NCBI GenBank assembly: GCA_963840035.1
Contig: CAWIXE010000002.1
Location: forward strand, 928,001 to 992,000
Origin: a candidate division FCPU426 bacterium
GTDB lineage: Bacteria > Oederibacteriota > PGYV01 > Palsa-1178
Direction: 5' to 3'
DNA: 64,000 bases
In this document: piece after piece, positions 1,851 through 18,218 of the stretch
Layout of the letters: each line of letters opens with the position of its first letter
Position numbering within the stretch: the first letter of the stretch is position 1
Position numbers and translations under genes: made by a program
The notes under the pieces: model-generated
Told to the model about the DNA's origin: nothing
Database searches by the model: none
What the model saw: the letters and a program-made list of their open reading frames with translations, nothing else

Positions 1851-1962
1851 CCCAACACCGTGCCTTGACAATTGACTTTATTCAAATAACCGCCTCATTT
1901 TATTGATCACATTCATATTTCATTGTATATAACAATATTCATCATTCCTCTCAAATTACACC
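1851..1962 (-). repeat. Cassette-boundary repeat copy 1
   Basis: cccaacaccgtgccttgacaattgactttattcaaataaccgcctcattttattg on +, ending about 25 nt before the channel gene start. Confidence 0.9.
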
Positions 1963-1967
1963 TTTAC

Positions 1968-2471
1968 TTACTTCAACTTTTTTATTTGATTTAATGCCTT
2001 TTTACAACCGATATTATTGGCTGTATTTAAATCTTTTTTTGCATTATCAATTTGGTCTATAATCACATAACATGCGGCTCTTAGTATATAAACATCACAG
2101 AACGAATTATCTAGTTCAAGTGATTTACTACAATCTTTAATAGCATCATCATATTTTTTTATGCCAAACTCCGCAGAGGCTTTTCCGTAATAAGCTACCG
2201 GATCATTTGGGTTAAGTTTGATTGCCTTAAGGCTATCTTCAATCATACCTTTATTATCACCAACACGCATTTTCGCAAAGCAGCGCCTATCAAACGTTCG
2301 GTAATTTGATGGGTCTATCTCAATTGCTTTTGAATAAAACTCTATCGCTTTTTTAAAGTTCCCGTTTGATGCTTGTTTATCGCCTTTATCAATATATGTG
2401 TCTGCGCTTATTGCCAATATAAATGTAATCGATAACATTGAAAGAATTATCAATAACACGTTTTTTTTCAT
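1968..2471 (-). CDS. Secreted TPR repeat protein
   Basis: Signal peptide MKKNVLLIIL after GGAGGAG RBS, then 3-4 TPRs. The ORF-track start at 2546 lies inside the repeat. Confidence 0.8.
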   Translation of the reverse strand: MKKNVLLIILSMLSITFILAISADTYIDKGDKQASNGNFKKAIEFYSKAIEIDPSNYRTFDRRCFAKMRVGDNKGMIEDSLKAIKLNPNDPVAYYGKASAEFGIKKYDDAIKDCSKSLELDNSFCDVYILRAACYVIIDQIDNAKKDLNTANNIGCKKALNQIKKLK

Positions 2472-2504
2472 TTCTCCTCCGGAATCAAATTTATTAAAAA
2501 ACTT

Positions 2505-2560
2505 CCCAACACCGTGCCTTGACAATTGACATTGTACCAGTTTCATCTTAATTTTATTAG
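2505..2560 (-). repeat. Cassette-boundary repeat copy 2, joined to the RAYT-like 3' end
   Basis: cccaacaccgtgccttgacaattgacatt on +. Confidence 0.9.
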
Positions 2561-2728
2561 CGTTTTATCTCCCAGTTTGTGAATAAGGCTTTCAATACGT
2601 TGTTTTATGACCTTGTCTTGTGCCGCTTCTGCTTCCAGTTTGTTTATTGCCTTACTTACCGCTTTGTGGGTTATGGCAAACATTTCCGCTACTTCCTTTA
2701 ATCTTAATCCGGTTTGGCTTCTTATCAG
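2543..2728 (-). pseudogene. C-terminal fragment of a RAYT/Y1-transposase-like protein (DnaA_C/TrpR-like HTH)
   Basis: Manual translation LIRSQTGLRLKEVAEMFAITHKAVSKAINKLEAEAAQDKVIKQRIESLIHKLGDKTLIKLR*. No start codon. Cut at the palindromic element starting at 2731. Confidence 0.55.
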
Positions 2729-2730
2729 TG

Positions 2731-2833
2731 AAAATGGTACCAGACCTCGAGTTAATAGTTAATACATAACTTTTTTAACTGCTGAACCAGACTTTCTTTT
2801 GTCAAATATTAACTCGGGGGCCGGTTCCATTTT
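2731..2833. repeat. REPIN-like inverted repeat, family A (TGG(T/C)ACCAGACC)
   Basis: 27-nt arms 2731-2757 and 2807-2833 with 4 mismatches. Confidence 0.8.
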
Positions 2834-2849
2834 TTCCAATTATCTTATA

Positions 2850-4691
2850 TTATGGCCCTGGCGGAGAAAACCATACTTCATCGCTGTTGCCCGTTGCGTT
2901 TTCTCCTCCTATGCACCAAATTTTTGGGCCCGAGCCTGCATCATATATAAGCGCAAGGCTCCTGTATCTGTGCCCAAGTGTTGCGTTATTCGTTGCTTTC
3001 CACCAGTTTTTTCCGTCTGAGGAAGCCCACGCGTCGGCATATCCATTCAGCCCGCCTGTTCCTCCAGAAACCCATATCATATTATTATATACCCAGCTTA
3101 AATGGCCTCTCCTGGGGCCAAAGGGCGCTGATGCTGTGGCGCATTGCCAGTTCACACCGTCTGACGATGACCAGACATCATTTAATTCATTTCCTCCGGT
3201 TCCCATCCCTCCTATGACCCACATTTTCAGCCCCGTGCCGTCGTCAAAAACGACGCTTGAGTGCATCTGCCTCGGCGGGAATGCCGCGGAGGCGTTCGCG
3301 CATGTAAATGTAATCCCGTCGGATGACGACCATACATCGTTAAGATATAGATTCACACTGCCTTCGCCGGCTATGACCCATATTTTATTGTTAAAGACAA
3401 GGCACGTGTGGTCAAATCTTCCCTCAAATCCGCCGTTATGCGTTGAGCAGCTCCATGCCGCGCCATCCGTGGAATACCACACGTCGTTCCTTATGTCTGC
3501 ACTTCCGGCAAAACCGCCGATGAGCCACATCTTCTCGCCGCTTCCCGGGTCAAAAGCCACGCAGCCCGCGCCCCATCTGCCATGGGCCGCGGTGTAGGTC
3601 GTCGACGCGTACCAGTTGGTCCCGTCGGAGGAATAAATAACGTCATTTCTGATAGTGCCTACATAACCGCTTACGGCCCACATCTTTCCGTCGTATACCG
3701 TGCCAGTATGCCAGTACCTGCCGGCAAACGTCGTTCCCGAAGCTGACTGCGCCCAGTATGTTCCCGGACCAAATGTCGGTGTTATTGACGCGGTTGGTGA
3801 TATAGTGGACGTGTTCGTGGAAGTCGGGGTGGCCGTCTTTGTAAGTGTTACCGATTTTGTATTCGTAAATGTCGGTGATATGGACCATGTGGGCGATATC
3901 GTATGCGTGCATGATATGGTATATGTCCCGGTAATAGTGGGCGTCGCCGTACTCGTACCGGGATCATTGTATTTTACATTCACGCCTTTGCTTATGAGAT
4001 AAGGAATGTCCGTGTGAAGCGCCTTATAGCTCAGAGTGTTTCCCCTCAGGTCGACTACAGAGCTCGGGCCCAATCCCCCGGCATCGCAATTCTGTACGAT
4101 GGCGTCTATGTCCGTTATGTTGCTGCTGCCGAGGTCCAGATGGAAAAGTCCGGTCAGTCCCGCTATAGGATCAAGGCTGTTTATGCCCAGGGTGTTCCTG
4201 TATAAATTCATCCATGTGAGTCCGGTCATCCCGCTAATGGCATCTATGTTCAGGGGCACAGTGTTATAGTATATAAGGAGTTCGGTTAATTTCGGGAAAT
4301 ACTGCACGCCTTCAAGATTATTGACAGCCTTGCTGACTATGAAAAGCACCGTAAGGTCCTGGGACTCTTCCCTGTAAATATCCCCGGTGGGCTTTGATAA
4401 GGTCAGCCTTATTTGGGACTCCAGCACTGGGTCGGGGATATTGATGCGAACGTATGTGGGCGTAACGGTCGGGGACATTGACGCGGTTGGCAGCAGCGTG
4501 GAAGTCCTTGTTGCCGTGTTTGAGGGCGTGACGGTTTTCGATGATGTAGGTATGGGCGTGGATGTGGATGTAAAAGAAACCGTGGGATCAGGGCTTGCAA
4601 AAACAGACGGCCCCACGGGGTGTCTTTTCGAACACGACATCATGCATTGCATGATCAGGGCCAGAAAAATAATAAAATATTTTTTTTTCAA
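2850..4691 (-). CDS. Lipoprotein with Thr-rich linkers, internalin-like LRRs and a Kelch-like beta-propeller
   Basis: Lipobox MMSC-SKRHPVGP, TxT linkers, IPDPVLE/NNLEGVQYFPKLTEL LRRs, repeated NDVWSSSDG blades. Likely TTG start at 4691 after GGAAGG. Confidence 0.8.
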   Translation of the reverse strand: MKKKYFIIFLALIMQCMMSCSKRHPVGPSVFASPDPTVSFTSTSTPIPTSSKTVTPSNTATRTSTLLPTASMSPTVTPTYVRINIPDPVLESQIRLTLSKPTGDIYREESQDLTVLFIVSKAVNNLEGVQYFPKLTELLIYYNTVPLNIDAISGMTGLTWMNLYRNTLGINSLDPIAGLTGLFHLDLGSSNITDIDAIVQNCDAGGLGPSSVVDLRGNTLSYKALHTDIPYLISKGVNVKYNDPGTSTATPTITGTYTISCTHTISPTWSISPTFTNTKSVTLTKTATPTSTNTSTISPTASITPTFGPGTYWAQSASGTTFAGRYWHTGTVYDGKMWAVSGYVGTIRNDVIYSSDGTNWYASTTYTAAHGRWGAGCVAFDPGSGEKMWLIGGFAGSADIRNDVWYSTDGAAWSCSTHNGGFEGRFDHTCLVFNNKIWVIAGEGSVNLYLNDVWSSSDGITFTCANASAAFPPRQMHSSVVFDDGTGLKMWVIGGMGTGGNELNDVWSSSDGVNWQCATASAPFGPRRGHLSWVYNNMIWVSGGTGGLNGYADAWASSDGKNWWKATNNATLGHRYRSLALIYDAGSGPKIWCIGGENATGNSDEVWFSPPGP

Positions 4692-4723
4692 AAATGCCGC
4701 CTTCCTTTGTGTAATAAAAGAAT

Positions 4724-4871
4724 CCACAACACGTGCCTTGACAATTGACATTAATCAAATAAACGCCTTATTTTATTAACCCCACTTGTATTTCTTCGTA
4801 AATAATCACTATTTATCGTCCCTCTCTAATTCCACCATCGCGCGATACTCTACCAACTAAGTTACCGCCCC
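4724..4871 (-). repeat. Cassette-boundary repeat copy 3 (long form ending in a tRNA-5'-like segment)
   Basis: ccacaacacgtgccttgacaattgacattaatcaaataaacgccttattttatt...tatttcttcgtaaata...tactctaccaactaagttaccgcccc. Confidence 0.9.
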
Positions 4872-4900
4872 TTCCAAACTAATGCCGCAGGGCATATAGA

Positions 4901-5137
4901 CTATTTCTTAACGAAAACCAGCATATTAAAATATATCGTGGTAGCTTTTGCCCCAAGTAACGCCCAGATACATCCCGGGTTCTGAGTAACTGCTATGTTT
5001 TCCATAGAGTGAAATTCCCAGTTGTCTTTAGCTTCCAGATTGATAAGGTCCGCAAAAGACCTGACAGCCCCGTCAAAAGACCCGTTCTTTCCCAATACTA
5101 ATTCTTTTGGTGCCGGTACACATTTATACTGCGCCAT
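4901..5137 (-). CDS. Small DUF4177-like protein
   Basis: MAQYKCVPAP...LINLEAKDNWEFHSME...MLVFVKK. Flanked by a 16-bp perfect inverted repeat. Confidence 0.6.
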   Translation of the reverse strand: MAQYKCVPAPKELVLGKNGSFDGAVRSFADLINLEAKDNWEFHSMENIAVTQNPGCIWALLGAKATTIYFNMLVFVKK

Positions 5138-5372
5138 ATTCCCCCCCATACTTTTTTACGTTATTTAAATTCTCCTGAGCTTTCTAAAACATTCATTACA
5201 TCTTTCAGCCCTTGTTATACTCATGATGCCCTGCGGCATTATTATTTCCCTATTATCCCGCAAGAGTCGGCCGCCATCTCGGCATACGGCTCTTTGCATC
5301 TCGCCTTATATTAAGAATTTAAGTAAATACCTTATACTAAGTCATCATCAGGGCACAAATTATCAGCGTGTT

Positions 5373-8165
5373 TTATATAGCGTCTTTAAGTTCGTTTTTT
5401 ATTTTTTCAGCTCTTTTATCGCCTAATTCCAAAGCTTTTGACGCGTCTTTAAGGGCGCCTGCTTTATCCCCGAGTTTTAACTTTACTTCAGCCAGGTAGT
5501 AGTATACTTCTCCGTCTTTCAGCATGGTTACAAGGGCTGTTTCCAGGTCTTTTTTAGCTTTTCCATAATCACCTTTTTTGTAATACATCATGCCCCTGCC
5601 TTTAAAGGTAATATCCGATTTTGGCTGCATGTAAAAGGCTGTGTCAAAATCCTTATTTGCGGCGTTGTAGTCGCCCATCTGGGTATATGCTATTCCCCTG
5701 TATGAATAACCTATGCACGCCTGCGGGAAACCTTTGATCACGGCTTCGAAATCTTTGACCGCGCCTTTATAATCACCCATTGTTATCCTGAGGTTTCCGC
5801 GAGTCAGATAAGCCGAAGTATATTTGGGGTTCAGTTCTATCGCTTTATCAAGGTCCATCAGGGCCTCTTTATTGTTTGCAAGCGCTATTTTGGCTGTTGC
5901 GCGGTAATTGTAGTAAGTATAATCTGCCGGATTGTCCTTTAAGAATAAATCACAGTCCCTGATGGCTCCGGCATAATTACCGGAATACATTTTATCAAAT
6001 AGCAGCTGCAGGGGCGTTTTTGCTTTTCCGGTCCTTTGGTCTATGGCGCTGTCCGGTAATTTCTTTTCCCTTTTTGCGAGTCCCAGCCATATCTTTGCTT
6101 CTTTATATCCGCCTTCACCCCAGACATCATACACGGAATTATCGCCTATTGCCTTAAAACATTTAATAGCCTCTTTTTTCATTTTCTTATCGACATAATA
6201 CTTCGCAAGCTCGTTCCAGGCTTCCCAGTTGTGTTCATCCGCCTTTATGAGGTCGTTTATGGCTTTTAGCTTCATCTTTATCACTGCCGGGTTCCTGGTT
6301 ATCTTTTCCTTGGCATGATCCGTGGCCTGTCCGTTGAGGTCCTGGCTTATGGCCGCGAGCACCAGATTTGGATATAGGGCAGCCAGATCGGGATTACCCT
6401 GCGGGATTACTTTTTTCGCGTCAGCAAGCGCTTTATCCCTGTTTCCGGTCAGTGACATCCAGAAAAAGTAATCTTCCCAGTTTTTGATATCCATGGGTTT
6501 GCGCCCGAAATACAGGAGCATGATATTCTTGTAATCTTTGTAATATGGCGATGATTTTACCGCGTCCGCGAAGTTATCCCTTGCGATCTGATTGCCGTCA
6601 AATTCATACGAACCGCTTGCGCGGAAACTGTCCTGGGCAATCTCACTGATAAGGAAAGGACACTTGTTATAAAACTGCTTATAAAGCCCCTCAATCTCGG
6701 CTATACTCCCGTGCCATTTTGGCTGCAGATAGTTGGCAAAGTTCAGGTAAGCGGCGGAGTCGTATGGATTTAAGCCGATTGACGTGCTAAAAGCATCATG
6801 CATTTCCAGTTTATCAATCCCTGCCGCCAGACCGGAGATCATCAGATTATTCCATGTCCAGCCGTCCCCGGGAGCGGTTTTTGTGGCCCGGCGGGAGGCG
6901 TTTAATCCAAAGTTGATGCGCCGTTCGATCTCCGCCCACTTTTTGGATTCAACAGTATTTGCGTAACCGTTGCCTCTCAAGTCCCAGGCCCAGTTTATAT
7001 ATGTATCCGACAGCAGCATCCACGCATCCTGATTTTCCGGATGTATTTTAGTCCATGCTTCGGCAAGCTCGATGGCTTCACTGTTATATTTTGATTTGCT
7101 GAGTATTTTGACGGCTGACTTGTAAAGATAGACATTATTATTGTCATTTAGAAGCTGATTTATTAAGGCTTTTGCCGGTTCCGCGTCGTATATAGGATTT
7201 GAAATACTCGCTTTTATCTCTTCATAAATTGTAAAAGGCGACTTTTCAGCGGTATTGTTGATTTTGTTTACCGCTATCCAGGACCCACCCTGATTCCTGT
7301 CTGCGGCTGTCCACTGCCATCTGCTTTTCAGGAATGGATTATCCGGTTCCTTTTCGGACATTTTATCCACACCACAGGCGATTGCCGGCCATGCCCGAAG
7401 TATGTGCTCTATGCGGGCGCTTTTCAGGAAATTATCTTCGTTTAAGAACAAAGTCTTTGAAAAATATTCCTTTTGTTGCTGTTCAAGTTTTGCTTCAGTC
7501 CATAAAAAATAACACTCCGCGGCCCACTCAGGCGCTTTGTGCACTTCACCAACAGGAAATTTTTTCCTGTAATAACCGTCGATTTTGCCTCCCCAAAAAT
7601 GCAGGGCTATTTCATATTCATTGTTCAGCTTTTTTATGGTGCCTTCGCCAAAATGTCTTCCTTTAAAACGCATCGGCAACTGTTCCCTGTATACCTGTTG
7701 TATAGGTTTTCTCAGCGGATCAAACAGCGCCAGATTCTGGAATAAATAGCCCACATCAGGTATGCTCATGTTAAAACCAGGCGTATAAGAAGCCCTGATC
7801 ATAGCCAGATAACTTATAAATGAACCAAGCGGCGTTAAGCCGCTGTCCTCGACATTAGTAAGTGGAAATATAAGCGGGCAAGGCGTCAATTCTCTTGAAG
7901 AAGAAACCAGTTTTTTTATAAGTGCACTAATTTCGGTATGAGGTTTCATTGCTTTGGCCTGCATCTCGGCAATCTGTTTTTTAATTGCAAAAAAACCGGA
8001 AATCTTTCCGCCGAATAACATAATCAGTGTCAGTCCCGATAAAATAACAACGGATAATATTATAATGGGGAGTTTTGCCCCGGAAGAATTCTTCCACACA
8101 GGCTGAAGCTGTCCATCTGTATTATTATTTGAACCATTGCCGGAGCTATTATTCATCAATTCCAC
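5373..8165 (-). CDS. Large membrane-anchored DUF4034-like plus TPR protein
   Basis: N-terminal TM, WAWDLRGNGYANTV and LQPKWHGS motifs, C-terminal TPRs. Confidence 0.7.
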   Translation of the reverse strand: MELMNNSSGNGSNNNTDGQLQPVWKNSSGAKLPIIILSVVILSGLTLIMLFGGKISGFFAIKKQIAEMQAKAMKPHTEISALIKKLVSSSRELTPCPLIFPLTNVEDSGLTPLGSFISYLAMIRASYTPGFNMSIPDVGYLFQNLALFDPLRKPIQQVYREQLPMRFKGRHFGEGTIKKLNNEYEIALHFWGGKIDGYYRKKFPVGEVHKAPEWAAECYFLWTEAKLEQQQKEYFSKTLFLNEDNFLKSARIEHILRAWPAIACGVDKMSEKEPDNPFLKSRWQWTAADRNQGGSWIAVNKINNTAEKSPFTIYEEIKASISNPIYDAEPAKALINQLLNDNNNVYLYKSAVKILSKSKYNSEAIELAEAWTKIHPENQDAWMLLSDTYINWAWDLRGNGYANTVESKKWAEIERRINFGLNASRRATKTAPGDGWTWNNLMISGLAAGIDKLEMHDAFSTSIGLNPYDSAAYLNFANYLQPKWHGSIAEIEGLYKQFYNKCPFLISEIAQDSFRASGSYEFDGNQIARDNFADAVKSSPYYKDYKNIMLLYFGRKPMDIKNWEDYFFWMSLTGNRDKALADAKKVIPQGNPDLAALYPNLVLAAISQDLNGQATDHAKEKITRNPAVIKMKLKAINDLIKADEHNWEAWNELAKYYVDKKMKKEAIKCFKAIGDNSVYDVWGEGGYKEAKIWLGLAKREKKLPDSAIDQRTGKAKTPLQLLFDKMYSGNYAGAIRDCDLFLKDNPADYTYYNYRATAKIALANNKEALMDLDKAIELNPKYTSAYLTRGNLRITMGDYKGAVKDFEAVIKGFPQACIGYSYRGIAYTQMGDYNAANKDFDTAFYMQPKSDITFKGRGMMYYKKGDYGKAKKDLETALVTMLKDGEVYYYLAEVKLKLGDKAGALKDASKALELGDKRAEKIKNELKDAI

Positions 8166-8190
8166 GTTCCCTCCTAATTTTATAAAAACT

Positions 8191-8340
8191 CCTCAACACC
8201 GTGCCTTGACAATTGACTTTATCCAAATAATCGCCTTATTTTACTGACCATACTACTATTTCTTCACAAATACGCACTATTTATCATTATTCCCCAAATC
8301 CATCCTATCCACGATGCTCTACCAACTGAGATACCGACCC
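8191..8340 (-). repeat. Cassette-boundary repeat copy 4 (long form ending in a tRNA-5'-like segment)
   Basis: cctcaacaccgtgccttgacaattgactttatccaaataatcgccttatttt...gatgctctaccaactgagataccgaccc. Confidence 0.9.
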
Positions 8341-8376
8341 GCTTTGCCATCCAAACCCCTGTCCTGGTCTATCTCC

Positions 8377-8441
8377 CTTGAACCCACAGTCCCTTCCAGG
8401 ACACCTGATTTCGAGTCAGGTACCATTCTACCCAATCCCGC
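8377..8441 (-). pseudogene. Degenerate class II (Leu/Ser-type) tRNA remnant
   Basis: Minus strand: D-arm-like GCGGGATTGGGTAGA, anticodon stem-loop CCTGA-CTCGAAA-TCAGG, variable hairpin GTCC/GGAC, T-arm start GTGGGTTCAAG. Acceptor stem absent. Confidence 0.6.
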
Positions 8442-8486
8442 TTAATTATCAACATACACGACGAAGCCTTGACGAAGTCACCGAAA

Positions 8487-9842
8487 TCACTCCGCAGGGA
8501 ACTCCACGTTCATTATCATATTCATCACTGAATCTTCTGCCGCGGTTGTTGTTTTCTTCATGTTTTGGTCCGTATAATCAGTCCCTGTATAATCTATAAG
8601 TGTTATGTATTTCCCCTGCAATGTATAGTACATTTTCAGGTAATGTCTTGTATAAGCGGGGCATGCGCCTTCCTTTGTATCATACTCGGCTACTGCCCAC
8701 CCTTTTCCCGCAGGTTTTATTATGCTGATGCCGCAGAGATTATACTTCTCGTACGGTTCAGCAAGGCTCGGATGTTTTACAGCGTCAATTTCTGCCAGCT
8801 TTTTTTTGCGCAGTGCTTCAGCTATCGCTGGATTCTCCGGGGTGAATTGATCCTCCGGTATGCCCAGTGAATCTGAAGGTATAACGGATACTTTGAGCAG
8901 GGCTAACCCCGGACATGGCGTTTTTTGCATCATCATCAGCCTTTCGCCTTTTGCGCCTGCCGGCATCATCGTCCAGCTATCATCAGGCTGGATTGTCATG
9001 CCGTTAATCAGCTTGCCGCTTCCCGCCATAAATCCCATCGCTTTGTCCCGAATGCCGGGCAGCATCATAACAGAAGTAGCAGCCGCCACTATGGCCACAT
9101 AAAATAAAACAGAAAGGAAACATCCAAGAAATGTGTTCATGCCTTTTGTCTCTTCGGGTTTTACATTATTTGCCTTTTTATAAAGATTGTACATTACAAC
9201 TTTCAGCGACGTGAAAAACGGCCCAAGCAGGATGCCAATACCGGTCGACACCGCCAAAAAAACAATATTGTCTTTAAGAAAACTAATATGGCCGGTTTGT
9301 ATGATAATCTGGGTTGCGGCATTAGGCAATATATAAAAGAACAAGCATAAAAAAAAGACCGTCCAAAAGCGGCCTTTTACAGTCAGGGCGCTTACTTTTA
9401 ACGGGCTTGAAGATTTATCCTCCAGGACCGCGGCTTCCATCGCAAAGAACCTTGTAGTAAGCCAGTATATTCCGGGGAATACAAGCAACACAAGGCCCAG
9501 CAGCGATACTATCATGTAAATCATCATTGCCACAAAGCCTCTCAAAGCCTTTGAAGAACCGTTTGATACGGCGGCACTTATGTCAATCCTGCCTTCAAGG
9601 TGTGCCATGGATATGGCTGTTATCAGCGTAGAAACGCCCAGTAACGACAAAAGTACAGCAACCAGAAAGGCCGCCATTATAAATGGCGAGCTGCTTTTAA
9701 CGGCAATAACATAAAAAGACAGCGCCATAAGAGGCCCTATACTTATTATATTCATTATGATCAAAGTAAAATAGTTGCCAACACAAACAGAAAATGCATC
9801 CTTCAAAACTTCCGAAAACGCGGCTCCTGATTTTTTTGTCAT
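8487..9842 (-). CDS. Multi-pass membrane protein (GDPD-membrane-domain-like) with soluble C-terminal domain
   Basis: About 6-7 TM helices with LLLVFPGIYW...ALTVKGRFWTVF pattern. Confidence 0.6.
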   Translation of the reverse strand: MTKKSGAAFSEVLKDAFSVCVGNYFTLIIMNIISIGPLMALSFYVIAVKSSSPFIMAAFLVAVLLSLLGVSTLITAISMAHLEGRIDISAAVSNGSSKALRGFVAMMIYMIVSLLGLVLLVFPGIYWLTTRFFAMEAAVLEDKSSSPLKVSALTVKGRFWTVFFLCLFFYILPNAATQIIIQTGHISFLKDNIVFLAVSTGIGILLGPFFTSLKVVMYNLYKKANNVKPEETKGMNTFLGCFLSVLFYVAIVAAATSVMMLPGIRDKAMGFMAGSGKLINGMTIQPDDSWTMMPAGAKGERLMMMQKTPCPGLALLKVSVIPSDSLGIPEDQFTPENPAIAEALRKKKLAEIDAVKHPSLAEPYEKYNLCGISIIKPAGKGWAVAEYDTKEGACPAYTRHYLKMYYTLQGKYITLIDYTGTDYTDQNMKKTTTAAEDSVMNMIMNVEFPAE

Positions 9843-9891
9843 AACACCCCCATTAATAGTATTTATAAACAGTTTGAACTTAAAATAAAAA

Positions 9892-9970
9892 CCCCAATAC
9901 CGTGCCTTGACTCAAGTCTTTATTCAAATAAACGCATACTTTATCAGACATGTTGCTATTTCTTTGTAAA
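9892..9970 (-). repeat. Cassette-boundary repeat copy 5
   Basis: ccccaataccgtgccttgactcaagtctttattcaaataaacgc...tgttgctatttctttgtaaa. Confidence 0.85.
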
Positions 9971-10003
9971 CAAACATAAAATAAGCGTCGGGACCTGATT
10001 TAT

Positions 10004-10074
10004 ATTCACAAACCGGGGGCCGCCTGCTGTGTACCGGAATGAAATGACTGTTACATAGTCCCCGGTTTGTGAAT
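10004..10074. repeat. Inverted repeat, REP-like family B (ATTCACAAACCGGGG)
   Basis: attcacaaaccgggg ... ccccggtttgtgaat. Related copies at 16831-16867 and near 14945-15065. Confidence 0.75.
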
Positions 10075-10090
10075 TGGCCAGCCTTTCATA

Positions 10091-10495
10091 TTAACCCATC
10101 ATCTTCTTTGCCCAGTTAAAGTACCTGTCCGTTCTTTTATAAATTTCTTCAGCCTCTTTTTTCGTAAATATCCTGTCCATATACTCAACCTGATTTTTCA
10201 TCGCGATTATCCTTCCAAGCGCCGCGGCTTCATTGCCGGCTGAGCGGCCCAGTTTCTCTTCCATGAGCTTTATCACATCCCGGTGGTCCTTGCTTGTGCT
10301 CCTTATGCCGCATTTCTTTGCAAGGACGGCATCCGTGGCTGATATGGCGCAGTGCACGGCTTCAAGGCCTACTGAGTACCAGTTTTCATCTTTGTATGCG
10401 GCATTCATCGCCCTGAAAAAAGCGGACGCCTTATCCATGTATACGGCATGGCTTGAGTTTTCCACGTTTTCAAAGCCGCCATGTTTTATGTTCAT
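10091..10495 (-). CDS. HEPN domain protein, putative toxin
   Basis: HEPN pattern AVHCAISATDAVL...DHRDV...MKNQVEY. Overlaps the MNT gene stop by 4 nt. Confidence 0.8.
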   Translation of the reverse strand: MNIKHGGFENVENSSHAVYMDKASAFFRAMNAAYKDENWYSVGLEAVHCAISATDAVLAKKCGIRSTSKDHRDVIKLMEEKLGRSAGNEAAALGRIIAMKNQVEYMDRIFTKKEAEEIYKRTDRYFNWAKKMMG

Positions 10496-11106
10496 TTTAT
10501 CAGTTCCCCCATGTTCTTACCGTAAATCACCGTACCTGACCTGAATATTTCCATTACAAGCCCGTTCTTTTTCTTATAAGCGCCGCGGAATTCCGGGACG
10601 CTTAATATGGCCGGAGACAGCACATTACCGTATTTAGCGATAAAAAATCCGGATGCTTTGGATATCCTGTCGGCTGCCGCCTCTTTTTTATCAGCATCCC
10701 TGACCACCATCATGATGTCTATGTCGCTTTCCGCCGAATCTTTGCCTTTTGCCACGCTTCCGAAGAGTATTATGGATACAGTATCCGCTTTTGCCAGCCC
10801 TGCCAGGTCATGCGCAAGTTCTATCTTCAGATTTTCCTCAGCTTTAAATACCGGCTCGATTATGTCCCGCACATTAATATTGGACCTGTTTAAGGCATAA
10901 ACCGCGGTCCTGCCGCTTCCGTCCCTTTTTATGACGCCCAGCGCCGCCAGTTTCTTTAACTCAGAGGAGCAAGACTGGTGATTGATTCCCGCCATCCGCG
11001 CAAGAGCGCGGCCGGAATGAAGCCCCTGTGCCCCGCATAGCGCAGCGAGAAGCTTAATGGCTGTTTTATTTGAAAAAACACTTAATACCGCATTTTTAAA
11101 GATCAT
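10492..11106 (-). CDS. HTH plus minimal nucleotidyltransferase (MNT), putative antitoxin
   Basis: N-terminal wHTH (SGRALARMAGINH) and LFGSVAKG...ESDIDI motif. ATG at 11106. Confidence 0.85.
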   Translation of the reverse strand: MIFKNAVLSVFSNKTAIKLLAALCGAQGLHSGRALARMAGINHQSCSSELKKLAALGVIKRDGSGRTAVYALNRSNINVRDIIEPVFKAEENLKIELAHDLAGLAKADTVSIILFGSVAKGKDSAESDIDIMMVVRDADKKEAAADRISKASGFFIAKYGNVLSPAILSVPEFRGAYKKKNGLVMEIFRSGTVIYGKNMGELIK

Positions 11107-11126
11107 AGCCACCCCTGTCTTGTTTT

Positions 11127-11180
11127 GCAGACAATTGTCTGCTTTTATAGACAGTATATATCCTTTTACGCCCTTGTCAA
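11127..11180 (-). promoter_or_regulatory. Sigma70 promoter and operator palindrome of the MNT-HEPN module
   Basis: TTGACA (11175-11180), 16 nt, TATACT (11153-11158). Perfect palindrome GCAGACAATTGTCTGC at 11127-11142. Confidence 0.7.
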
Positions 11181-11208
11181 CATGAAAATTACAGCCAGAT
11201 AACACAAT

Positions 11209-11290
11209 CCCCAACACCGTACCTTGACTCAAGAAATTATTCAAATAAACGTCTTATTTTATTGGCCATGTTGCTATTTCTGCGTAAATA
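11209..11290 (-). repeat. Cassette-boundary repeat copy 6
   Basis: ccccaacaccgtaccttgactcaagaaattattcaaataaacgtcttattttattggccatgttgctatttctgcgtaaata. Confidence 0.85.
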
Positions 11291-11344
11291 AGCGAAAAAT
11301 ATGTGTCAAAAAGAACCGGCCTTTCCTAATAATTAAATAATGCT

Positions 11345-12097
11345 TTATTCACAATAAACAAAATACGCGCTTATCGACGTCGCGATGGGGTTCGTCGCGT
11401 ATGTGCCGCTTGCCGGCAAGCCTGCCGAAAAATCCGACCATGCAGAGCCGCACGCGTACAGCCCATTTCCGTCTGATATCAGGATAGACCCCTCAGCAAC
11501 CGTGCCTATCCAGTAGGTGCCGGCGTTTAATGTCGTCAAGGGGAAAACAAAGGCATTAAAAGAGTTATAAGTCATGGCAACGCCGGAAGTTTCGCTTATC
11601 AAAGCGCCCGGCGAGCCTGTGTTGTCCGCATATATCCCTATCCTGTACTGTTTTCCTATATTGCCGGCTTCATTTCCCACGCCGAACATGACGTAATTGA
11701 AAGTGATATCTGAAGCCAGCGTATAGCTGCTTATCAGCATGCAATTGGAGGCCCAGTTGTAGGAAACGGCCATATTCCCGATAAGGTTTCCGCCGCACAC
11801 CAGCGAAGTGGGAGTCACCGTGCAGGTGGCAGTCGCGGTCTCAGTGGCAGTCTCAGACACAGTGCCGGTGCATGTAGCCGAGCTTGTTTCCGTAATCGTA
11901 ATGGTTCCGGTGAGCGTGACGGTCATCGTCGGCGTTTGAGATGCTGTTGCGGTTTCCGTCATAGTCCCCGTTTGAATTATTGTCCGCGTCATGGTAACTG
12001 TAGCCGTCATTTCTCCCACCGCAGTGTTCTCCGGCCCTGACGGCGCTTTTTTATTGCATCCGTAACAAATCAACAAAAAAACTGCCAATAAGATCAT
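11345..12097 (-). CDS. Lipoprotein with Thr-rich stalk and beta-sandwich C-terminal domain
   Basis: CYGC-NKKAPSGP lipobox, TxT linker, YRIGIYADNTGSPG...AGTYWIG head. Start uncertain because of an A7 tract. Confidence 0.7.
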   Translation of the reverse strand: MILLAVFLLICYGCNKKAPSGPENTAVGEMTATVTMTRTIIQTGTMTETATASQTPTMTVTLTGTITITETSSATCTGTVSETATETATATCTVTPTSLVCGGNLIGNMAVSYNWASNCMLISSYTLASDITFNYVMFGVGNEAGNIGKQYRIGIYADNTGSPGALISETSGVAMTYNSFNAFVFPLTTLNAGTYWIGTVAEGSILISDGNGLYACGSAWSDFSAGLPASGTYATNPIATSISAYFVYCE

Positions 12098-12149
12098 GTT
12101 TTTTTCATACTTCCCCTCCATTTTATCCCGGTGTCCGGTATTAAATCAA

Positions 12150-12183
12150 CAACACTGTGCCTTGACAATTGACTTTGCTCAAA
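12150..12183 (-). repeat. Cassette-boundary repeat copy 7 (short)
   Basis: caacactgtgccttgacaattgactttgctcaaa. Confidence 0.85.
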
Positions 12184-12186
12184 CGT

Positions 12187-12375
12187 AAAAAGGTGTCAGA
12201 CCTGATTCATGATTCTATCCTTCGACAGGCTCAGGATTATATTTCCTCTGCCGCAGGCATGCCTATCCCGCATAGTTATTTTATGGATTGTTTGAAAAGA
12301 ATCTTCCCGATAACCCCGGTTCACCATCACAGCTCCCAGTTTTCAGTCGTATGCCCCACAAGCCATCCTATCACA
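12187..12375. repeat. About 185-bp dispersed repeat, copy A (copy B at 19075-19254)
   Basis: Shared cctgattcatgattctatccttcgacaggctcaggatt...ttatggattgtttgaaaagaatct...tatgccccacaagccatcct. Confidence 0.85.
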
Positions 12376-12420: not shown

Positions 12421-13620
12421 CGTAAGTTGCAACAATTAAAACCCCACCCCAACCAACTGAGGCATTTTTCTTGTAAAGATTTGATTTGTCATTTGTGTCG
12501 CAGTTTCGTATCCAATTACCTTTCTGGGGTAATTGTTCATCCATGTCTCTATTTTCTTGATTTCCTTATTGCTTATAGGGCCTATGCTGGTTCCCTTGGG
12601 TATAAACCGTCTTATCATCCTGTTTGAGTTCTCGTTTGTACCTCTTTCACAGGAACAATAAGGGTGAGCAAAATATATATTTGTCCTTTTTTGTCCATTA
12701 AATACTTTGCTGGCTTCTAAAAACTCCCAGTTCAAGAACTCCGAGCCATTATCTGCCGTGATACTCTTAAAAATATCCTTAAAATTTTCTTTGTATTTCT
12801 GTTCCAACTTCGTCAGAACTCTGTCGACTTCTTCATTTGAGGCTGACTTCATTTTCTCAATTATTTCCTTTCTTGTCTTCCTTTCACTCAACGTCAACAA
12901 ACATTTTTTATCCCCTTGCTTTCCTTTGACGCAATCGATTTCCCAGTGACCGTATTCAGATCTTTCATTGGCCTCTTTTGGTCTGTCTTCTATGCTCTTG
13001 CAAAGTCTGTTCTTATCGAAAACACGCACTCTTTTGTTCTTGTTTTTCCTTTTGCGTTTCATCCATAAATCCTCATTGCTTATGCCATAAAAAACTTCTT
13101 TGCCTATATAGTTATAAATGGTTTTTGCACTTAAAGTCACAGTAAATTTCTGTTCTTTGTTCTTGATTGTTGCTGCAACCGCGGCCGGAGAGTATCGGTC
13201 TTTCTTTATGGTTAGTTCTATGTATTCAGCCAGTTTGTGGTCGCTGCCTATCTTTAATCCTGGTCCTTTGTGCTTTGACTTTTCATCATGTATTTCCTGG
13301 CCTATGTGCGCTTTATATACCTTCCGGGTTGTTAAATCACTATTCAACAGCTCAATCGTGCCTCTTTTTATCTCTCTGTTTATCGTCCTGTGATTTCTAC
13401 CCAACAAACGGCCTATCTCGCGACCTGTTAATTTCTTCTGCCGTAAAGCCTCAATCTTGTATCTTTCGCTTTCCCTTAAATACGTTCTTGTGGTACTATT
13501 TACTTGTCCCATCAGTCCAGCTCCTTTGGTTTATGTTTGGTCGCACTTACATAATACCATCAGTTGTTCTGTTGGGACTTTTTCTTTTTCTATGTGGGGT
13601 TTTTCATCTTACACTTTTTA
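12421..13620 (-). mobile_element. IS30-family insertion sequence, 1200 bp
   Basis: Imperfect 27-nt terminal IRs ending AAAACCCCAC. Flanked exactly by the 16-bp direct repeat ttgtcgttattgtaca (12405-12420 and 13621-13636). Confidence 0.9.
12436..13512 (-). CDS. IS30 family DDE transposase
   Basis: HTH (TINREIKRG), GHWEIDCV, ITADNGSEF, ERGTNENSNRMIRRFIPKG. Appears intact. Confidence 0.95.
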   Translation of the reverse strand: MGQVNSTTRTYLRESERYKIEALRQKKLTGREIGRLLGRNHRTINREIKRGTIELLNSDLTTRKVYKAHIGQEIHDEKSKHKGPGLKIGSDHKLAEYIELTIKKDRYSPAAVAATIKNKEQKFTVTLSAKTIYNYIGKEVFYGISNEDLWMKRKRKNKNKRVRVFDKNRLCKSIEDRPKEANERSEYGHWEIDCVKGKQGDKKCLLTLSERKTRKEIIEKMKSASNEEVDRVLTKLEQKYKENFKDIFKSITADNGSEFLNWEFLEASKVFNGQKRTNIYFAHPYCSCERGTNENSNRMIRRFIPKGTSIGPISNKEIKKIETWMNNYPRKVIGYETATQMTNQIFTRKMPQLVGVGF

Positions 13621-14006: not shown

Positions 14007-14693
14007 ATGAAAAAAGTTCTCGTTCCTTTGTTTGTTTTATTCGTTGTTTTGCACGCCATTATCGCCGGATGCAAGAATAACCCGGCCCCTGCAGGCCCGT
14101 CCGGCCCTTCCGGCACGGCTACAGTAACGGCTACCTGCACTTTATCGCCTACAATTACATGCACGCCTTCAGCGTCAGCCACCGTTACCCCCACCATCAC
14201 CCCGAATAATTCAGCCGCGTCATTTGACTTTGAAAGCGGCACCCAGGGCTGGGGAAATACGGGATACGCGGCTGTCATAGACGAATCCCTGAGCACTGCC
14301 AGAGCGCACGGAGGCGCCTCGTCGATTATGATCAGCTGCAGTTTCACCAATACAAATTATATGGTTTCGCTTGTAAAGTATTTTTTCCCGGATTACTACA
14401 ACTTCAAGGGAAAGACTTTTTCAGCGTGGATATATGTCCCGGCAACGATGGGAATATTGTCCCCTTCGTACAGCACCCGGCTTTATATGTGCGACCTGAG
14501 CGGATGGCATTACGTGGTCGGCCCGGCGCTCACATCAACGGACATGTGGCAAAATATAACTATATCCGTCCCTGATGACATGGCCATGGATAATTATATT
14601 CAAAGGATAGAATTCTGGGTATGTAAATCATTACCGTCGACAACACCTGACTGGACCGGGATTATTTACCTGGATGATGTGTCTTGGTTTTAG
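14007..14693 (+). CDS. Lipoprotein with Thr-rich stalk and carbohydrate-binding-like domain
   Basis: IAGC-KNNPAPAGP, FDFESGTQGW...IYLDDVSW jelly-roll ends. ATG at 14007 after GGGAG. Confidence 0.75.
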   Translation: MKKVLVPLFVLFVVLHAIIAGCKNNPAPAGPSGPSGTATVTATCTLSPTITCTPSASATVTPTITPNNSAASFDFESGTQGWGNTGYAAVIDESLSTARAHGGASSIMISCSFTNTNYMVSLVKYFFPDYYNFKGKTFSAWIYVPATMGILSPSYSTRLYMCDLSGWHYVVGPALTSTDMWQNITISVPDDMAMDNYIQRIEFWVCKSLPSTTPDWTGIIYLDDVSWF

Positions 14694-14819
14694 TCCTCCA
14701 GAGCAATTAGCTAATTACGCGATACAGGACACGGCATCCAGTTTTACTTCCAGTCCGGCCTGCTTCTGCCTATGACATTATTGGACAATACAAGCGGTGT
14801 GTTTCCGTCAACGAGATTT

Positions 14820-14896
14820 CCAACACCGTGACTTGACAATTGGCATTGTTCAAATAAACGCCATATTTAATTGGCCACGCTGCTATTTCTTCGTAA
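14820..14896 (-). repeat. Cassette-boundary repeat copy 8
   Basis: ccaacaccgtgacttgacaattggcattgttcaaataaacgccatatttaattggccacgctgctatttcttcgtaa. Confidence 0.85.
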
Positions 14897-15094
14897 CTTT
14901 CCATACCAACACAATCCAACACCATACCCAACGAAATCTCCCTTTTCACAAATTGGGGTCCCCTTCGGAAAGCCCGGGGTTTTCTATACATTGGCAATCT
15001 CCCGAGCCTGTCGAAGGAGACCCAACCCCGTGAAACATTTCGCCGCCTCCAACCAATTCACAAACATACGATCGCCCCGGTTCCGTTTAAAACA

Positions 15095-15742
15095 TTATTT
15101 AAAATTATCCAGTATTTTTCCGCGCATATTTTTGTATTCCTCTTCCGTGATAACTTTTTTATCTTTCAGCGCTTTAAGGTCATTCAGTTTCTGCTCCAGA
15201 GGGGAGACGGATGTGGCTGCCTCAGGCTGACCGGCTGTGGACACGGCCTTTTGACGAAAATATTTGTCACACGATGTATTCTCAGATGGCGGCATCTTGC
15301 CCCATTTATCATGGAACTTTTCGTCCCCTCCCGACGCTTCTTCCGCAGTTTTACCCCCTGACAGAACTTTATATTCAAAATACCTCAGTATCTGTTCCTT
15401 ATCAAAGAGAAACCAGTACTCAGTCCCGCTATTCACGCTGTATTCCTCGGCTTCCGTCACTGATGACGCGTCAGAGAAATAATCCCCGTCCTTGTACTGT
15501 GTCTTGAAGCGCTGCTTTGTGACGGCTTTTAAGTTGCCAAATTCTATTGCTATCATGTCGCAGTTGCCTATGCTTCCGCCCGGCTGCGGGCAGCAGGTTC
15601 CGGACATGGCGGCCAGTACGTCCGCATATGTGGCAGTGCCCACCATAGGCTTGAACTTATCCTTTACCTTATGGTTTACAGTTGCACATCCGTTCAAAAG
15701 AAAAAAAGATATTGTTAAGACCAAAGCAAACATCCTTTTCAT
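15095..15742 (-). CDS. Lipoprotein with C-terminal SHOCT domain
   Basis: LNGC lipobox and LNDLKALKDKKVITEEEYKNMRGKIL. Confidence 0.8.
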   Translation of the reverse strand: MKRMFALVLTISFFLLNGCATVNHKVKDKFKPMVGTATYADVLAAMSGTCCPQPGGSIGNCDMIAIEFGNLKAVTKQRFKTQYKDGDYFSDASSVTEAEEYSVNSGTEYWFLFDKEQILRYFEYKVLSGGKTAEEASGGDEKFHDKWGKMPPSENTSCDKYFRQKAVSTAGQPEAATSVSPLEQKLNDLKALKDKKVITEEEYKNMRGKILDNFK

Positions 15743-15869
15743 CGCAAACCTCCCACACCTGACTATTTGTTTTTAATGATAAAGTCTCATCACTTCAACC
15801 CCACTGCTAAACCCATTAAAAATGGCGTCAGACAGAACCCGAATCATGAACATTTCGCGAAAGAGTCAG

Positions 15870-16568
15870 TTAGTAATCAAAGTCCACGCTGTCGACGTAA
15901 ATATTACCGCCTGTGACAACTGGCAGGCTTTCATTTCTTGCGAATATCCATATGCCTTCCAGGAGGGCTTGTGCGCCCGTCGGAGGTGGATTTGCGGCTG
16001 TGTCCCATACAAAGTGCTGCCATTCCCCGGTGCCGTCCGCATAGCCAAGGTTTTGCCAGTGTGTAAAAAATAAAAGCGTACTCATGCCTATGCCTATTTG
16101 GTATCCCGCCATGCCCGGCGGGCATTTGATGTAAAAGCTTATGACGTGTCCTGTCACATCTAAGCCGCCCGGATAATAACAATAAAATATTTCATCGCCT
16201 GTATCCACAGCGCTATACATGGATCCGGGCGGGTCAAAATAATTCCCGGAGGTATAACCCAGGCTATTCAACGAACTAAACGTCCAGTTGGGTAATTCCG
16301 CGGCCGATGAAAAAGAATAATCAGCGCCGGGTATAACCGCGGTAGCGGTTTCAAGCGGCGTGTTTGTATTTGTGGCTGTCGAAGTAGGCGTTGCCGTGGC
16401 GGTTATAGTGGAAGTAACCGTTATAGTAGCCGTATCAGCCGGAGTGGCAGTCATGGTTACAGTTGAGGAAGGTGTAATACCGGCCAAAGGATTAGCAGGA
16501 GACTTCTTCTTACATGAAACAAGAGATAAAGCAATAACCGCAACAAGTAAAAAAGCTAACTTTTTCAT
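15870..16568 (-). CDS. Lipoprotein with Thr-rich stalk and CBM-like head
   Basis: LVSC-KKKSPANP, TxT linker, NIYVDSVDF end. Confidence 0.75.
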   Translation of the reverse strand: MKKLAFLLVAVIALSLVSCKKKSPANPLAGITPSSTVTMTATPADTATITVTSTITATATPTSTATNTNTPLETATAVIPGADYSFSSAAELPNWTFSSLNSLGYTSGNYFDPPGSMYSAVDTGDEIFYCYYPGGLDVTGHVISFYIKCPPGMAGYQIGIGMSTLLFFTHWQNLGYADGTGEWQHFVWDTAANPPPTGAQALLEGIWIFARNESLPVVTGGNIYVDSVDFDY

Positions 16569-16920
16569 TTTTCCTCCGTTAATTTATATGTCATTCCCGC
16601 ACGAAAAATTGGTGTCAGTGGCTGATTCATGATTCTATTACAACAACACAAACAGACCTATCCCACAAAGCAACTAAATGGTTTGTCTGAAAAGAATTGT
16701 CCTCAAATATTAAATCCCGCATATCCCCTCCGCGCAGTCAGGAACCGAATTTAAGTATGTCTTATTATACCACTTCGGGGCTTATTTGTAATTGACCTTT
16801 TAGGCATTCCAGTCGGTCACACTGCCATCCAATTCACAAACCGGGGACAGTCCCCATTTTGTGAATTAGCTGTTAAAATCATTCACAAAAACAAATCTGT
16901 AAATTACCCCTGTTTTTGCT

Positions 16921-17127
16921 TTATGTCATGTCCGTTGTTTTTACCGTCCTGCCGGACTTGTCATATGTCACCCATTTGCCCGTCTGTTTACCATCCTTAA
17001 ACCATCCCTGCCGCATTTTGGAGCCGTCTTTCCTGTACCATTCCCAGTACCCGTGCTTTATGTCTTTTTCCAGGTTCCCTTTCGCATATATACTGCCATA
17101 CTTATTTGAGCGTGTAGTTAAATCAAC
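16921..17127 (-). pseudogene. 5'-truncated MORN-variant (YwqK-like) small protein
   Basis: Manual translation ...GSIYAKGNLEKDIKHGYWEWYRKDGSKMRQGWFKDGKQTGKWVTYDKSGRTVKTTDMT*. No upstream ATG, abuts repeat copy 9. Confidence 0.65.
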
Positions 17128-17128
17128 T

Positions 17129-17184
17129 CCCAGGACCGTGCCTCGACAATAGACATCGTCCCAAAATCCGCCTTATTTTATTGA
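17129..17184 (-). repeat. Cassette-boundary repeat copy 9 (degenerate)
   Basis: cccaggaccgtgcctcgacaatagacatcgtcccaaaatccgccttattttattga. Confidence 0.75.
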
Positions 17185-17255
17185 ACCAAGGTCTTTGAGC
17201 AAAAATGTGGCTGTCCCTTTTTTACTATAACAGGCCCGACGCTATTATTTTGACT

Positions 17256-17948
17256 TTATTTTTCTTTTGACAGCAATCCCTGCCCCAAAAAAACCGTTAC
17301 TGCCGCAAACATAAATATGGATAAAACCATTAAAATTATGGCCGCTTTTGGCGCAAACCACAGAAATGGTATGTTTGCTATGAACAGCAGTATGCTTCCG
17401 AAAACCGTATATGAAAACGCTTTCCATGTTTTAAAAAATGCAACGGCATATATAAAAAACGCTGTATAGGCAAGCGTAAATCCGGCTACGTCATATGACA
17501 AATACTTTAATGTTTCCACTTGCCTCAGATAAAGCATAACATCGGGAGAAATACCTGCCAAATGGCCCTGAAATCGATATATGCCGGCGCCAAAAACAGG
17601 CAAATTATTCATGATTTCCATAAGTAAAGATATCCCTAAAAGTGATTCCGCAAAAATCACAGCATAAGGATTTGAATCAAACTTCTTTACAGCAAACATA
17701 ACGCTGACCGGGAAGAATGAAAAAGCATATAACAATATCAGCATTGATTGAACCAAAGAAAAAACAGAATCTATCCCGGAACTATTTTGGGCCGCCGAAG
17801 GTATAAACCCTCCCGGGCTGACTTTTGGCATTACAACAATATAGGAAATACCATATCCGACAAGACCAATAACGGTAAGTATTCCAAGCATGTAAAAAAC
17901 TTTTTTAAACATTTCACTACGTTCGGCATTATTGTCCTTTGCTTTCAT
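17256..17948 (-). CDS. Multi-pass membrane protein of unknown function
   Basis: About 6 hydrophobic segments. Confidence 0.65.
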   Translation of the reverse strand: MKAKDNNAERSEMFKKVFYMLGILTVIGLVGYGISYIVVMPKVSPGGFIPSAAQNSSGIDSVFSLVQSMLILLYAFSFFPVSVMFAVKKFDSNPYAVIFAESLLGISLLMEIMNNLPVFGAGIYRFQGHLAGISPDVMLYLRQVETLKYLSYDVAGFTLAYTAFFIYAVAFFKTWKAFSYTVFGSILLFIANIPFLWFAPKAAIILMVLSIFMFAAVTVFLGQGLLSKEK

Positions 17949-18163
17949 TGCATCATGCTCCTTGAATAAATTGTCCGGCTTAAAGTAAAAAGTGTCCGGT
18001 GTCAGACCTTGCTTAGAGCATTAATAATTTTAATTTGCTTTGTATATACTCCAAACAGGGTCTGACGCCTTCCGCATTTGCGGCCCGCCTGCCGAAGGCA
18101 CCACAAGGGGGGGTGGCAATTTGCCCCCACCCTTTCAGAAATCCACAACACTGCCTTAAATCT

Positions 18164-18218
18164 CCAACACCGTGCCCTGACATTAGATATTCTAGCAAAA
18201 TCCGCTATATTTTATTGA
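18164..18218 (-). repeat. Cassette-boundary repeat copy 10 (degenerate)
   Basis: ccaacaccgtgccctgacattagatattctagcaaaatccgctatattttattga. Confidence 0.7.

Follow-up and report, generated by a model that had tools for sequence, protein, structure and literature searches.

A 64,000-nucleotide stretch of the genome of a candidate division FCPU426 bacterium (assembly GCA_963840035.1, contig CAWIXE010000002.1, positions 928,001 to 992,000; hereafter the window) carries ten copies of a short repeat interspersed with unrelated genes, an arrangement that an initial annotation likened to an integron cassette array built upon a non-attC site. Here these repeats are identified as the downstream terminal repeats of a TIRtron, that is, of an element in which a Y1 transposase gene (TIRYT, also classified as TnpA-Y1 subclass 2.1) lies between terminal inverted repeats (TIRs). 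The initial annotation was thus right in seeing the end of a recombination element that lacks attC features and has a Y1 partner; the site is not novel, however, inasmuch as it belongs to a described class. The ends are of two types and also form mini elements; breakpoints between related sequences occur 5-20 nt outside the repeat core; and the orientation of the ends is linked to the strand on which they lie. On balance, we believe that the array arose as an HUH enzyme joined its ends to whatever DNA lay nearby, and that the gene bodies decayed later.

The source genome of the window (G000; completeness 98%) consists of contigs termed here C1, C2 and C3; other G codes denote genomes of relatives, and L codes denote individual loci, whether genomic or metagenomic, that bear ends. 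An end downstream of the transposase gene is termed A and one upstream of it B; the tip is the outer edge of the core; and F1a, F2, F5 and F6 are labels for families of TIRYT ends.

Identity of the repeats

Direct inspection and a profile built from the ten window copies themselves both bear out the copies first annotated, which start at 1851, 2505, 4724, 8191, 9892, 11209, 12150, 14820, 17129 and 18164 on a single strand. A 17-mer allowing up to 3 mismatches yields 9 matches, all on the plus strand, where 0.10 are expected (100 shuffles); the 4724 copy, which has a 1-nt indel, is recovered by the profile, as are all ten, and the same profile locates an eleventh copy at window position -241. 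A truncated tip at about 18141-18157 is additional to the ten.

The inner sides of the copies reveal their origin: nine still carry the last codons of a transposase gene, and the AT-rich part of the consensus first drawn up corresponds to the final codons and stop codon of that gene. Copy 1 (1849..1904, core start 1858), which like the others is read on the minus strand, consists of the TIR core, with the tip to the left, preceded by what remains of the lost gene, namely its final codons and stop. The further copies are 2 (2503..2558, core 2512), 3 (4722..4777, core 4731, with the 1-nt indel at its tip), 4 (8190..8245, core 8199), 5 (9891..9946, core 9900), 6 (11208..11263, core 11217), 7 (12146..12183, core 12155), 8 (14817..14872, core 14826), 9 (17127..17182, core 17136) and 10 (18141..18216, core 18170), the last of which is joined to the truncated earlier tip. 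Nine window copies and the -241 copy are of type A; copy 7, whose inner side is truncated, is presumably also of type A, as judged from its window-type core.

An intact Y1 transposase, which the initial annotation had proposed to seek beyond position 1, is present in the same genome: an inverted pair of ends at C2:583767 and C2:584902, identical at 21 of 22 positions, surrounds an open reading frame (ORF) of 327 aa at C2:583882. The encoded protein has HYH and YVHMNP motifs, matches Y1_Tnp with 27.2 bits (cut-off 23), and has a DnaA-like C-terminus (DnaA models, E 6e-9, residues 205-319). PF08299 matches this protein with E 0.003, under the cut-off, and is recorded for its close homologues P0002 and P0003. 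In genome G012, locus L004 has perfect (25/25) TIRs around a 62% identical gene, with cores nearer to those of the window copies, and inverted pairs of ends also surround the gene in L044 and L045. A and B ends share the core and differ on the inner side. The published TIRtron (PMC3733652) likewise has, between its TIRs, a Y1 gene of about 327 aa that encodes a Y---NP motif and a DnaA_C-like helix-turn-helix (HTH).

Three intact TIRYT-type genes occur in G000, each with its own TIR, and the presence of several such genes per genome, each with its own TIR, has been reported (PMC3733652). The core of the nearest one (C2:583882) differs from the window cores by 2-5 bases; the window array is probably old and without an enzyme of its own. 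Three complete close homologues, 86-100% identical in amino acid sequence to the G012 protein, lie in different flanks, and a close homologue of the transposase carries the source label Candidatus Goldiibacteriota. Unlike most published TIRtrons, the window family lacks the literal GGGGWSAS motif in its core, whereas sister families in the window have it, as seen in the F5 ends; this motif is not obligatory, because other published TIRs are unrelated to it or self-complementary (PMC3733652).

A degenerate core pattern returned 27 rows in G000, of which 24 are credible copies after removal of two chance rows (C2:138766 and C2:152169) and one duplicate; five ambiguous ends were typed by hand. 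The repeat is not confined to the array: 13 more copies lie elsewhere in the genome. The core pattern is found in 10 of the 24 genomes of the order, and the other 75 genomes of the phylum yield 8 single matches with two mismatches, which are probably due to chance. Metagenome contigs contain no exact match to the window-type 24-mer; a relaxed pattern gives 30 rows on 28 loci in metagenome contigs, 6 in genome contigs and none in viral contigs.

Three side observations concern the ends themselves. A second conserved word, YAAATA, occurs at +67/68 from the core in 36 of 92 ends, of both A and B type; it may be a second binding site, in which case the functional end would be about 75 nt long. Just inside the core of the copies at 1858, 8199, 9900 and 11217, and in the window subfamily only, a 9-mer resembles what we take to be the relaxed DnaA box consensus; this resemblance is probably coincidental, though worth recording given the DnaA-like HTH. 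A similar GTAG-type hairpin, resembling repetitive extragenic palindromes (REPs), stands shortly before both F1a-type end remnants (in G000 C1 before 1157393 and in C2 at about 582530), and TIRtron ends may favour sites beside repeats of other Y1 families.

Breakpoints and gene turnover at the tips

Breakpoints were mapped in 35 sequences (3 islands pieced together from neighbouring loci, 9 loci from genomes and 23 of the 28 from metagenomes, the other 5 being omitted as duplicates of genome loci) and were compared with 2000 draws of non-coding positions. Among 56 internal alignment ends, 13 lie 1-40 nt outside a core, where the draws average 4.2 and never exceed 12; 3 lie inside a core, versus 13.8 expected; and 40 are far from any end. 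Pairs of near-identical contigs show the pattern more clearly, in that they have an end and its inner DNA in common and diverge from about 10-15 nt outside: L054 and L060 are identical at 1485 of 1485 inner bases and have only 10 outer bases in common, while L035 and L057 (99.3% over 1669 nt) and L036 and L050 (291/291 identical) likewise diverge at the tip. L009 and L013 represent one locus, with a common B end and both distal flanks retained, and carry different cargo. Compared with G022, the G012 sequence is longer by 2.95 kb, an insert whose start lies 13-14 nt outside an A core and whose end falls at a palindrome of another family. In relatives, therefore, neighbouring DNA does change at the tip, as the notion of gene capture put forward in the initial annotation would predict; that the enzyme itself does the capturing is a conjecture.

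A further case is seen within G000, where inward-facing A and B tips surround 8.9 kb between rpoN and hpf (C1:1157484-1166422; L101:2484-11422). This block contains four ORFs with Rhs repeats, which differ in their C-termini and each have a small ORF after them, as in a toxin/immunity-like array, and rpoN and hpf are adjacent in 7/7 family relatives, with a spacer of 106-261 nt including short margins. Cargo thus comes to lie between an A tip and a B tip, and intact elements are found at several different sites. At C2:582570-584902 a mini element, one ORF and an intact element stand in direct repeat, and mini B..A elements in G012 C15 likewise bound cargo as directly oriented copies. No fixed target duplication was found in any of 13 paired elements (13/13), the longest common flank word being 3-6 nt with no fixed register, and the flanks of intact elements are unrelated DNA on the two sides.

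On the cargo side the joins are non-specific, and several of them cut genes or promoters. Tips lie within an ATPase gene and a 305-aa gene in L001, within another TIRYT gene in L008, within an insertion sequence (IS) transposase gene in L044 (which we take to be IS110-like), within a helicase-like gene in L047 and within a long gene in L045/L050. Between the -35 and -10 boxes of the promoter of what is presumably gmhA (boxes identified in G022 and G023), L004 has an A tip, and the upstream gene there has been replaced. Stop codons in B tips were entertained as an integron-like trait and rejected, inasmuch as those of L045/L050 and L047 at least belong to truncated genes that run into the tip.

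Ends of a single type accumulate locally. The window has 10 A ends and no B end, versus 6 A and 7 B elsewhere in the genome (P=0.007), whereas L001 of G012 has nine B-type matches and B only. Six window copies form a clade of their own (FastTree support 0.92, with the 12150 copy omitted as too short), and the L001 copies are 81% alike, versus 69% to two other G012 ends. The A-only ends and the window clade indicate a local source of the copies.

As to where other TIRYT ends are found, F6 ends on G002:C14 (L119) lie mostly in one orientation. Islands with TIRYT ends occupy the same chromosomal spot in two families, L099 (G006:C97) and L022 (G012:C15), both preceded by genes that we presume to be ispE/spoVG-like; G000 has tRNA-Gln there. 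A multi-copy gene family of genus g9 stands beside B tips at different loci (L004:3182-5491, L013, L036, L045 and L050).

Orientation and the resemblance to an integron

Integron cassette arrays rely on an IntI integrase and attC sites. The window array resembles them in its heterogeneous and mostly co-oriented accessory genes, often with short leaders, and in its self-promoted toxin-antitoxin module. The observation that six copies stand just before start codons holds: 6 of 10 cores lie 30-57 nt ahead of a hand-curated minus-strand start, while 19% of random non-coding positions are equally near one (P=0.004). It is likewise confirmed that the MNT-HEPN pair has its own promoter-like site (TTGACA-16-TATACT), its start being 110 nt from the core. 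The rule that each repeat precedes a co-oriented gene is true of most copies and fails for those at 14820, 17129 and 18164: the first adjoins a short non-genic stretch and then a plus-strand gene, the second a MORN-like frame without a start (16924-17130), and the third the truncated earlier tip. The two rightmost copies do show the lowest nearest-neighbour similarity (0.60 and 0.67), as the initial annotation had noticed, yet they may belong to other subfamilies rather than being the oldest, and nothing in the data points to newer cassettes towards the window start.

In other respects the resemblance fails, and an integron with attC sites is rejected. IntI (TIGR02249) has no match above cut-off in G000 (best 89.7 bits versus 265), and the boxes RYYYAAC and GTTRRRY are present in 0/10 copies, in agreement with the initial annotation. 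There is no folded site either: ten strands, from 3 window copies and 2 intact-element ends, are no more stable than shuffles (z -0.64 to +1.43), and an Rfam scan of positions 1-30000 gave 7 sub-threshold miRNA matches, none on copies. Nor do the A ends contain a consistent outward promoter, 58 promoter-like sites being found versus 43 +/- 7 in shuffles.

The common orientation, initially taken as a sign of a cassette array, is instead a genome-wide strand property explained by the replichore. The G-rich strand serves as the sense strand of the transposase at 23 of 24 ends, including 12 of the 13 outside the array. Among ORFs, 2000 of 2266 (88%) are on the G-rich strand (ends versus ORFs, P=0.21). 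Flanking ORFs are co-oriented in 21 of 24 A rows, which include one duplicate, and 47 of 52 B rows, versus 122 of 145 ordinary gaps (automatic ORF calls). Since ends outside the array and ORFs in general share the G-rich strand, same orientation is rejected as proof of a cassette array: it follows GC skew and is in no excess over the gene background.

Contents of the window

The cargo is diverse. After copy 1 come, on the minus strand (1..1827), a small membrane protein (Ion_trans_2, weak), a 198-aa ORF and an Nmad3 gene; beyond the -241 A end (window -8747 to -365; G000 C2:919253-927635) lie a UvrD/GajB-like helicase and a type III restriction-modification pair. Proceeding rightward, the minus strand encodes a TPR protein (1968..2471), a lipoprotein-like ORF of LRR, Thr-rich or Kelch character (2850..4691), a 930-aa TPR/DUF4034 protein with an 82-aa ORF (4901..8165), a 451-aa membrane protein with no family match (8487..9842), the MNT-HEPN toxin-antitoxin-type pair (10091..11106), a Thr-rich lipoprotein-like ORF (11345..12121) and an IS30-family element (12421..13620), which has near-identical copies elsewhere in the genome and is unrelated to the repeat. 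These are followed by a plus-strand lipoprotein-like ORF (14007-14693), a SHOCT protein (15095-15742), another lipoprotein-like ORF (15870-16568) and a membrane protein (17256-17948).

The window also has ends of at least three other TIRYT families, together with an HTH remnant of one. The remnant (2572..2731, minus strand), found in a hidden Markov model (HMM) scan of the window region only, is the C-terminal HTH of a different TIRYT subfamily joined to the inner side of copy 2 (i-E 7.7e-6, model positions 265-316 of 318); being 77% identical to a G006:C97 remnant that ends in an F5 repeat, it was considered and rejected as the cognate transposase, since it belongs to another subfamily. Next to it is an F6 end (2737..2760), of the family that flanks an intact gene in G002:C14. 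An inverted pair of F5 ends forms a mini element after the HEPN stop (10005..10073), and self-complementary F5 ends, with the GGGGWSAS motif of published TIRtrons, lie at 16833..16867 and, a second one, at 14945. Copy 7 breaks off after some 30 nt, interrupted by an end that belongs to a different transposase family, the abutting F2 end (12187..12219), which is the TIR of the intact gene at G000 C3:278093; more F2 ends are near 16611, 17998/18069 and 19080.

Some cargo recurs in similar islands of relatives. The MNT-HEPN pair has an 80% identical counterpart elsewhere on the G006 chromosome, and that copy is flanked by F6 ends; the pair and an exonuclease recur in G006 at a different site and in a different order; and Nmad3 adjoins an intact F6 element in G002. 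A DNA search of 99 genomes, with 3 candidates scored per genome, found no locus orthologous to the window and gave scattered cargo matches. Farther along the window (24106-25032, 26457-26756 and 27431-27573) is a 209-bp tandem repeat of about four near-identical units that has two GC-rich palindromes, along with dispersed copies related to it.

Mechanism and alternatives

If the array did arise as proposed, the process might run as follows. The HTH would bind the unfolded core as double-stranded DNA, a mode of recognition that is likely because the core has no fold and the protein has an HTH. The HUH domain would then make a single-strand nick a little beyond the core, presumably at the replication fork, after which the end would be transferred to a site without sequence specificity. 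Joins to nearby DNA would produce adjacent deletions as well as units consisting of one element plus neighbouring DNA, and such units could insert again next to a resident end of their own subfamily, through the enzyme or RecA, thereby building end-cargo-end-cargo arrays by a logic like that of IS26 with a different chemistry. Copies would decay to mini elements and solo ends, and selection would preserve joins ending immediately before a ribosome-binding site, so that a cassette-like look would result.

Several considerations weigh against this account. An empty donor site and enzyme activity were not observed; nor were circles, for which no sequencing run that could be searched was listed for window 1700-11400. 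Replicative cointegrate formation, moreover, is not known for any Y1 enzyme. The exact cognate enzyme of the window copies is not intact in G000, and the mean likeness among the window copies is only 63%. The island extends from about -45 to +45 kb and so is much larger than the array, with tens of kb free of the repeat, and it contains at least three other TIRYT end families plus IS30, as in a permissive hot spot. No same-genus genome, and hence no site orthologous to a junction of this window, entered the comparison; because the loci of the breakpoint test were chosen for having ends and some events are non-independent, the effect size is overstated, and 2 of the 13 tip-proximal breakpoints are the termini of one intact element. 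Short contigs fit exchange at a fixed tip as well as movement of an end and its inner DNA elsewhere. The model leaves one-type arrays (A only in the window, B only in L001) unexplained; most junctions have a tip on one side only; and inner-side joins, at which a cargo stop meets a remnant, call for an additional deletion that the model does not account for.

Some of these points favour a passive origin, in which ordinary two-ended TIRtron insertions accumulated in a permissive island, deletions and acquired genes left solo ends, and the enzyme never moved cargo. Several end families and IS30 in a much larger island are what such an origin predicts; the orientation of ends and cargo is within background (P=0.21; 122/145 ordinary gaps); any insertion yields a breakpoint at its tip; and in G006 the toxin-antitoxin pair is flanked by the ends of another family. 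This origin is unlikely, though it deserves serious attention, given that the flanks of intact elements are unrelated, that the upstream gene and -35 box at gmhA were replaced and not displaced, that arrays consist of one end type and one subfamily, and that the inward tips around the Rhs block need two elements plus two matched losses. It is improbable, moreover, that the repeats spread in the manner of REPs, with the enzyme copying end-containing fragments of about 60-150 nt to nearby single-stranded sites between existing genes. Such copying would account for local clades, one-type arrays and tandem partial duplications of tips, and TnpA-REP does cleave REPs on either side as well as sites farther away (PMC8266576); against it stand the absence of a hairpin (10 strands, lowest z -0.64) and of a GTAG foot, the enrichment of breakpoints outside the core with depletion inside, and whole gene blocks that differ at tips at fixed loci.

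Two further explanations fare worse. Site-specific insertion of defined single-gene cassettes at the repeat by a sedentary, integron-like enzyme is very improbable and already largely refuted by the mid-gene joins: tips interrupt genes, promoters and other transposases, and do so at no constant distance, IntI above cut-off, attC boxes and fold are all lacking, and the enzyme gene is mobile and absent from the array. This holds even though a start is found within 60 nt of 6 of 10 tips (P=0.004), the lone ORF in L027 is separated from its flanking A and B cores by 29 and 18 nt, and cargo is swapped at a conserved end. That the repeat is an operator or promoter motif of a regulator of accessory genes, as a dyad core and six copies near starts might suggest, is scarcely credible and is refuted as an origin of the repeat, which includes transposase codons and forms inverted pairs around the gene; the downstream genes, besides, are unrelated, and the tips have no consistent outward promoter site.

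The joining of ends to arbitrary DNA, which we favour for this array, invites a broader and more tentative proposal, against which we would at present lean somewhat: that TIRYT enzymes constitute a widespread engine of gene capture and shuffling, an HUH counterpart of IS26. An end and adjacent genes would be excised as circles and re-inserted at resident ends on the same strand, assembling accessory islands (defence, toxin-antitoxin, Rhs, surface proteins) without a tyrosine or serine recombinase or a DDE enzyme.

Relation to known systems

The IS26 enzyme is of the DDE type, whereas an HUH/Y1 enzyme is at issue here. In common with IS26/IS6 translocatable units (PMC9602291), the present elements occur as directly oriented copies separated by unrelated cargo and have arbitrary cut points in adjacent DNA; new IS26 units also turn up beside resident copies. 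IS26 generates an 8-bp target duplication (PMC9602291), in contrast to the lack of any fixed one here; the window copies, moreover, decay to solo ends, and circles are inferred only. The array differs from an integron in lacking IntI, attC boxes and a folded site, and in its non-specific joins and replichore-determined orientation. REPtrons (RAYT groups 2-3) share the HUH core and the dispersal of repeats away from the gene, and TnpA-REP is able to cut at variable distances from its site (PMC8266576). They differ from the present elements, which have no GTAG foot and no hairpin, number tens and not hundreds of copies, and possess an extra HTH and a mobile gene; the 327-aa protein matches TnpA-REP only weakly (PDB 4ER8, E 0.34; NF047646, 67 bits, cut-off 80).

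The element class is already in print. Di Nocera 2013 (PMC3733652) described the TIRtron as a Y1 gene between TIRs that are moderately abundant and dispersed as singles, dimers and clusters, and put forward the binding and cutting of the TIR by its enzyme as a subject for later work. TIRYT corresponds to TnpA-Y1 subclass 2.1 (Quentin 2018, 10.1101/279083), the second largest subclass, found in 14.9% of strains (10.1101/279083), and to RAYT group 1 (Bertels 2017, PMC5581495), an equivalence given in 10.1101/2020.03.09.984088; of the RAYT groups, this one most resembles an IS (PMC5581495). In the literature covered, nothing was found that ties the class to one-sided arrays or to exchange near the tips; cargo, arrays of one end type, tip-proximal breakpoints and activity are not described in the accessible part of PMC3733652. 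Within the literature covered, which is partial, no activity assigned to subclass 2.1 and no account of cargo arrays at TIRYT ends was found, the nearest being an association in which subclass 2.1 genes and fragments are interspersed with prochlorosin genes (10.1101/2020.03.09.984088); those clusters resemble the present array in having the same subclass and C-terminal gene fragments among variable genes.

The locus and its relatives offer a defined substrate, in which ends of two types have a core of 22-25 nt and are joined 5-20 nt beyond it, as well as intact cognate enzymes; the function of the protein is thereby open to direct testing. Should TIRYT enzymes not move genes, the lesson would be that decayed TIRtron ends mimic integron arrays. 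If it is true that they move neighbouring genes, they would provide a way for accessory genes to turn over that is separate from integrons and DDE transposons and that would escape software designed to find cassettes.

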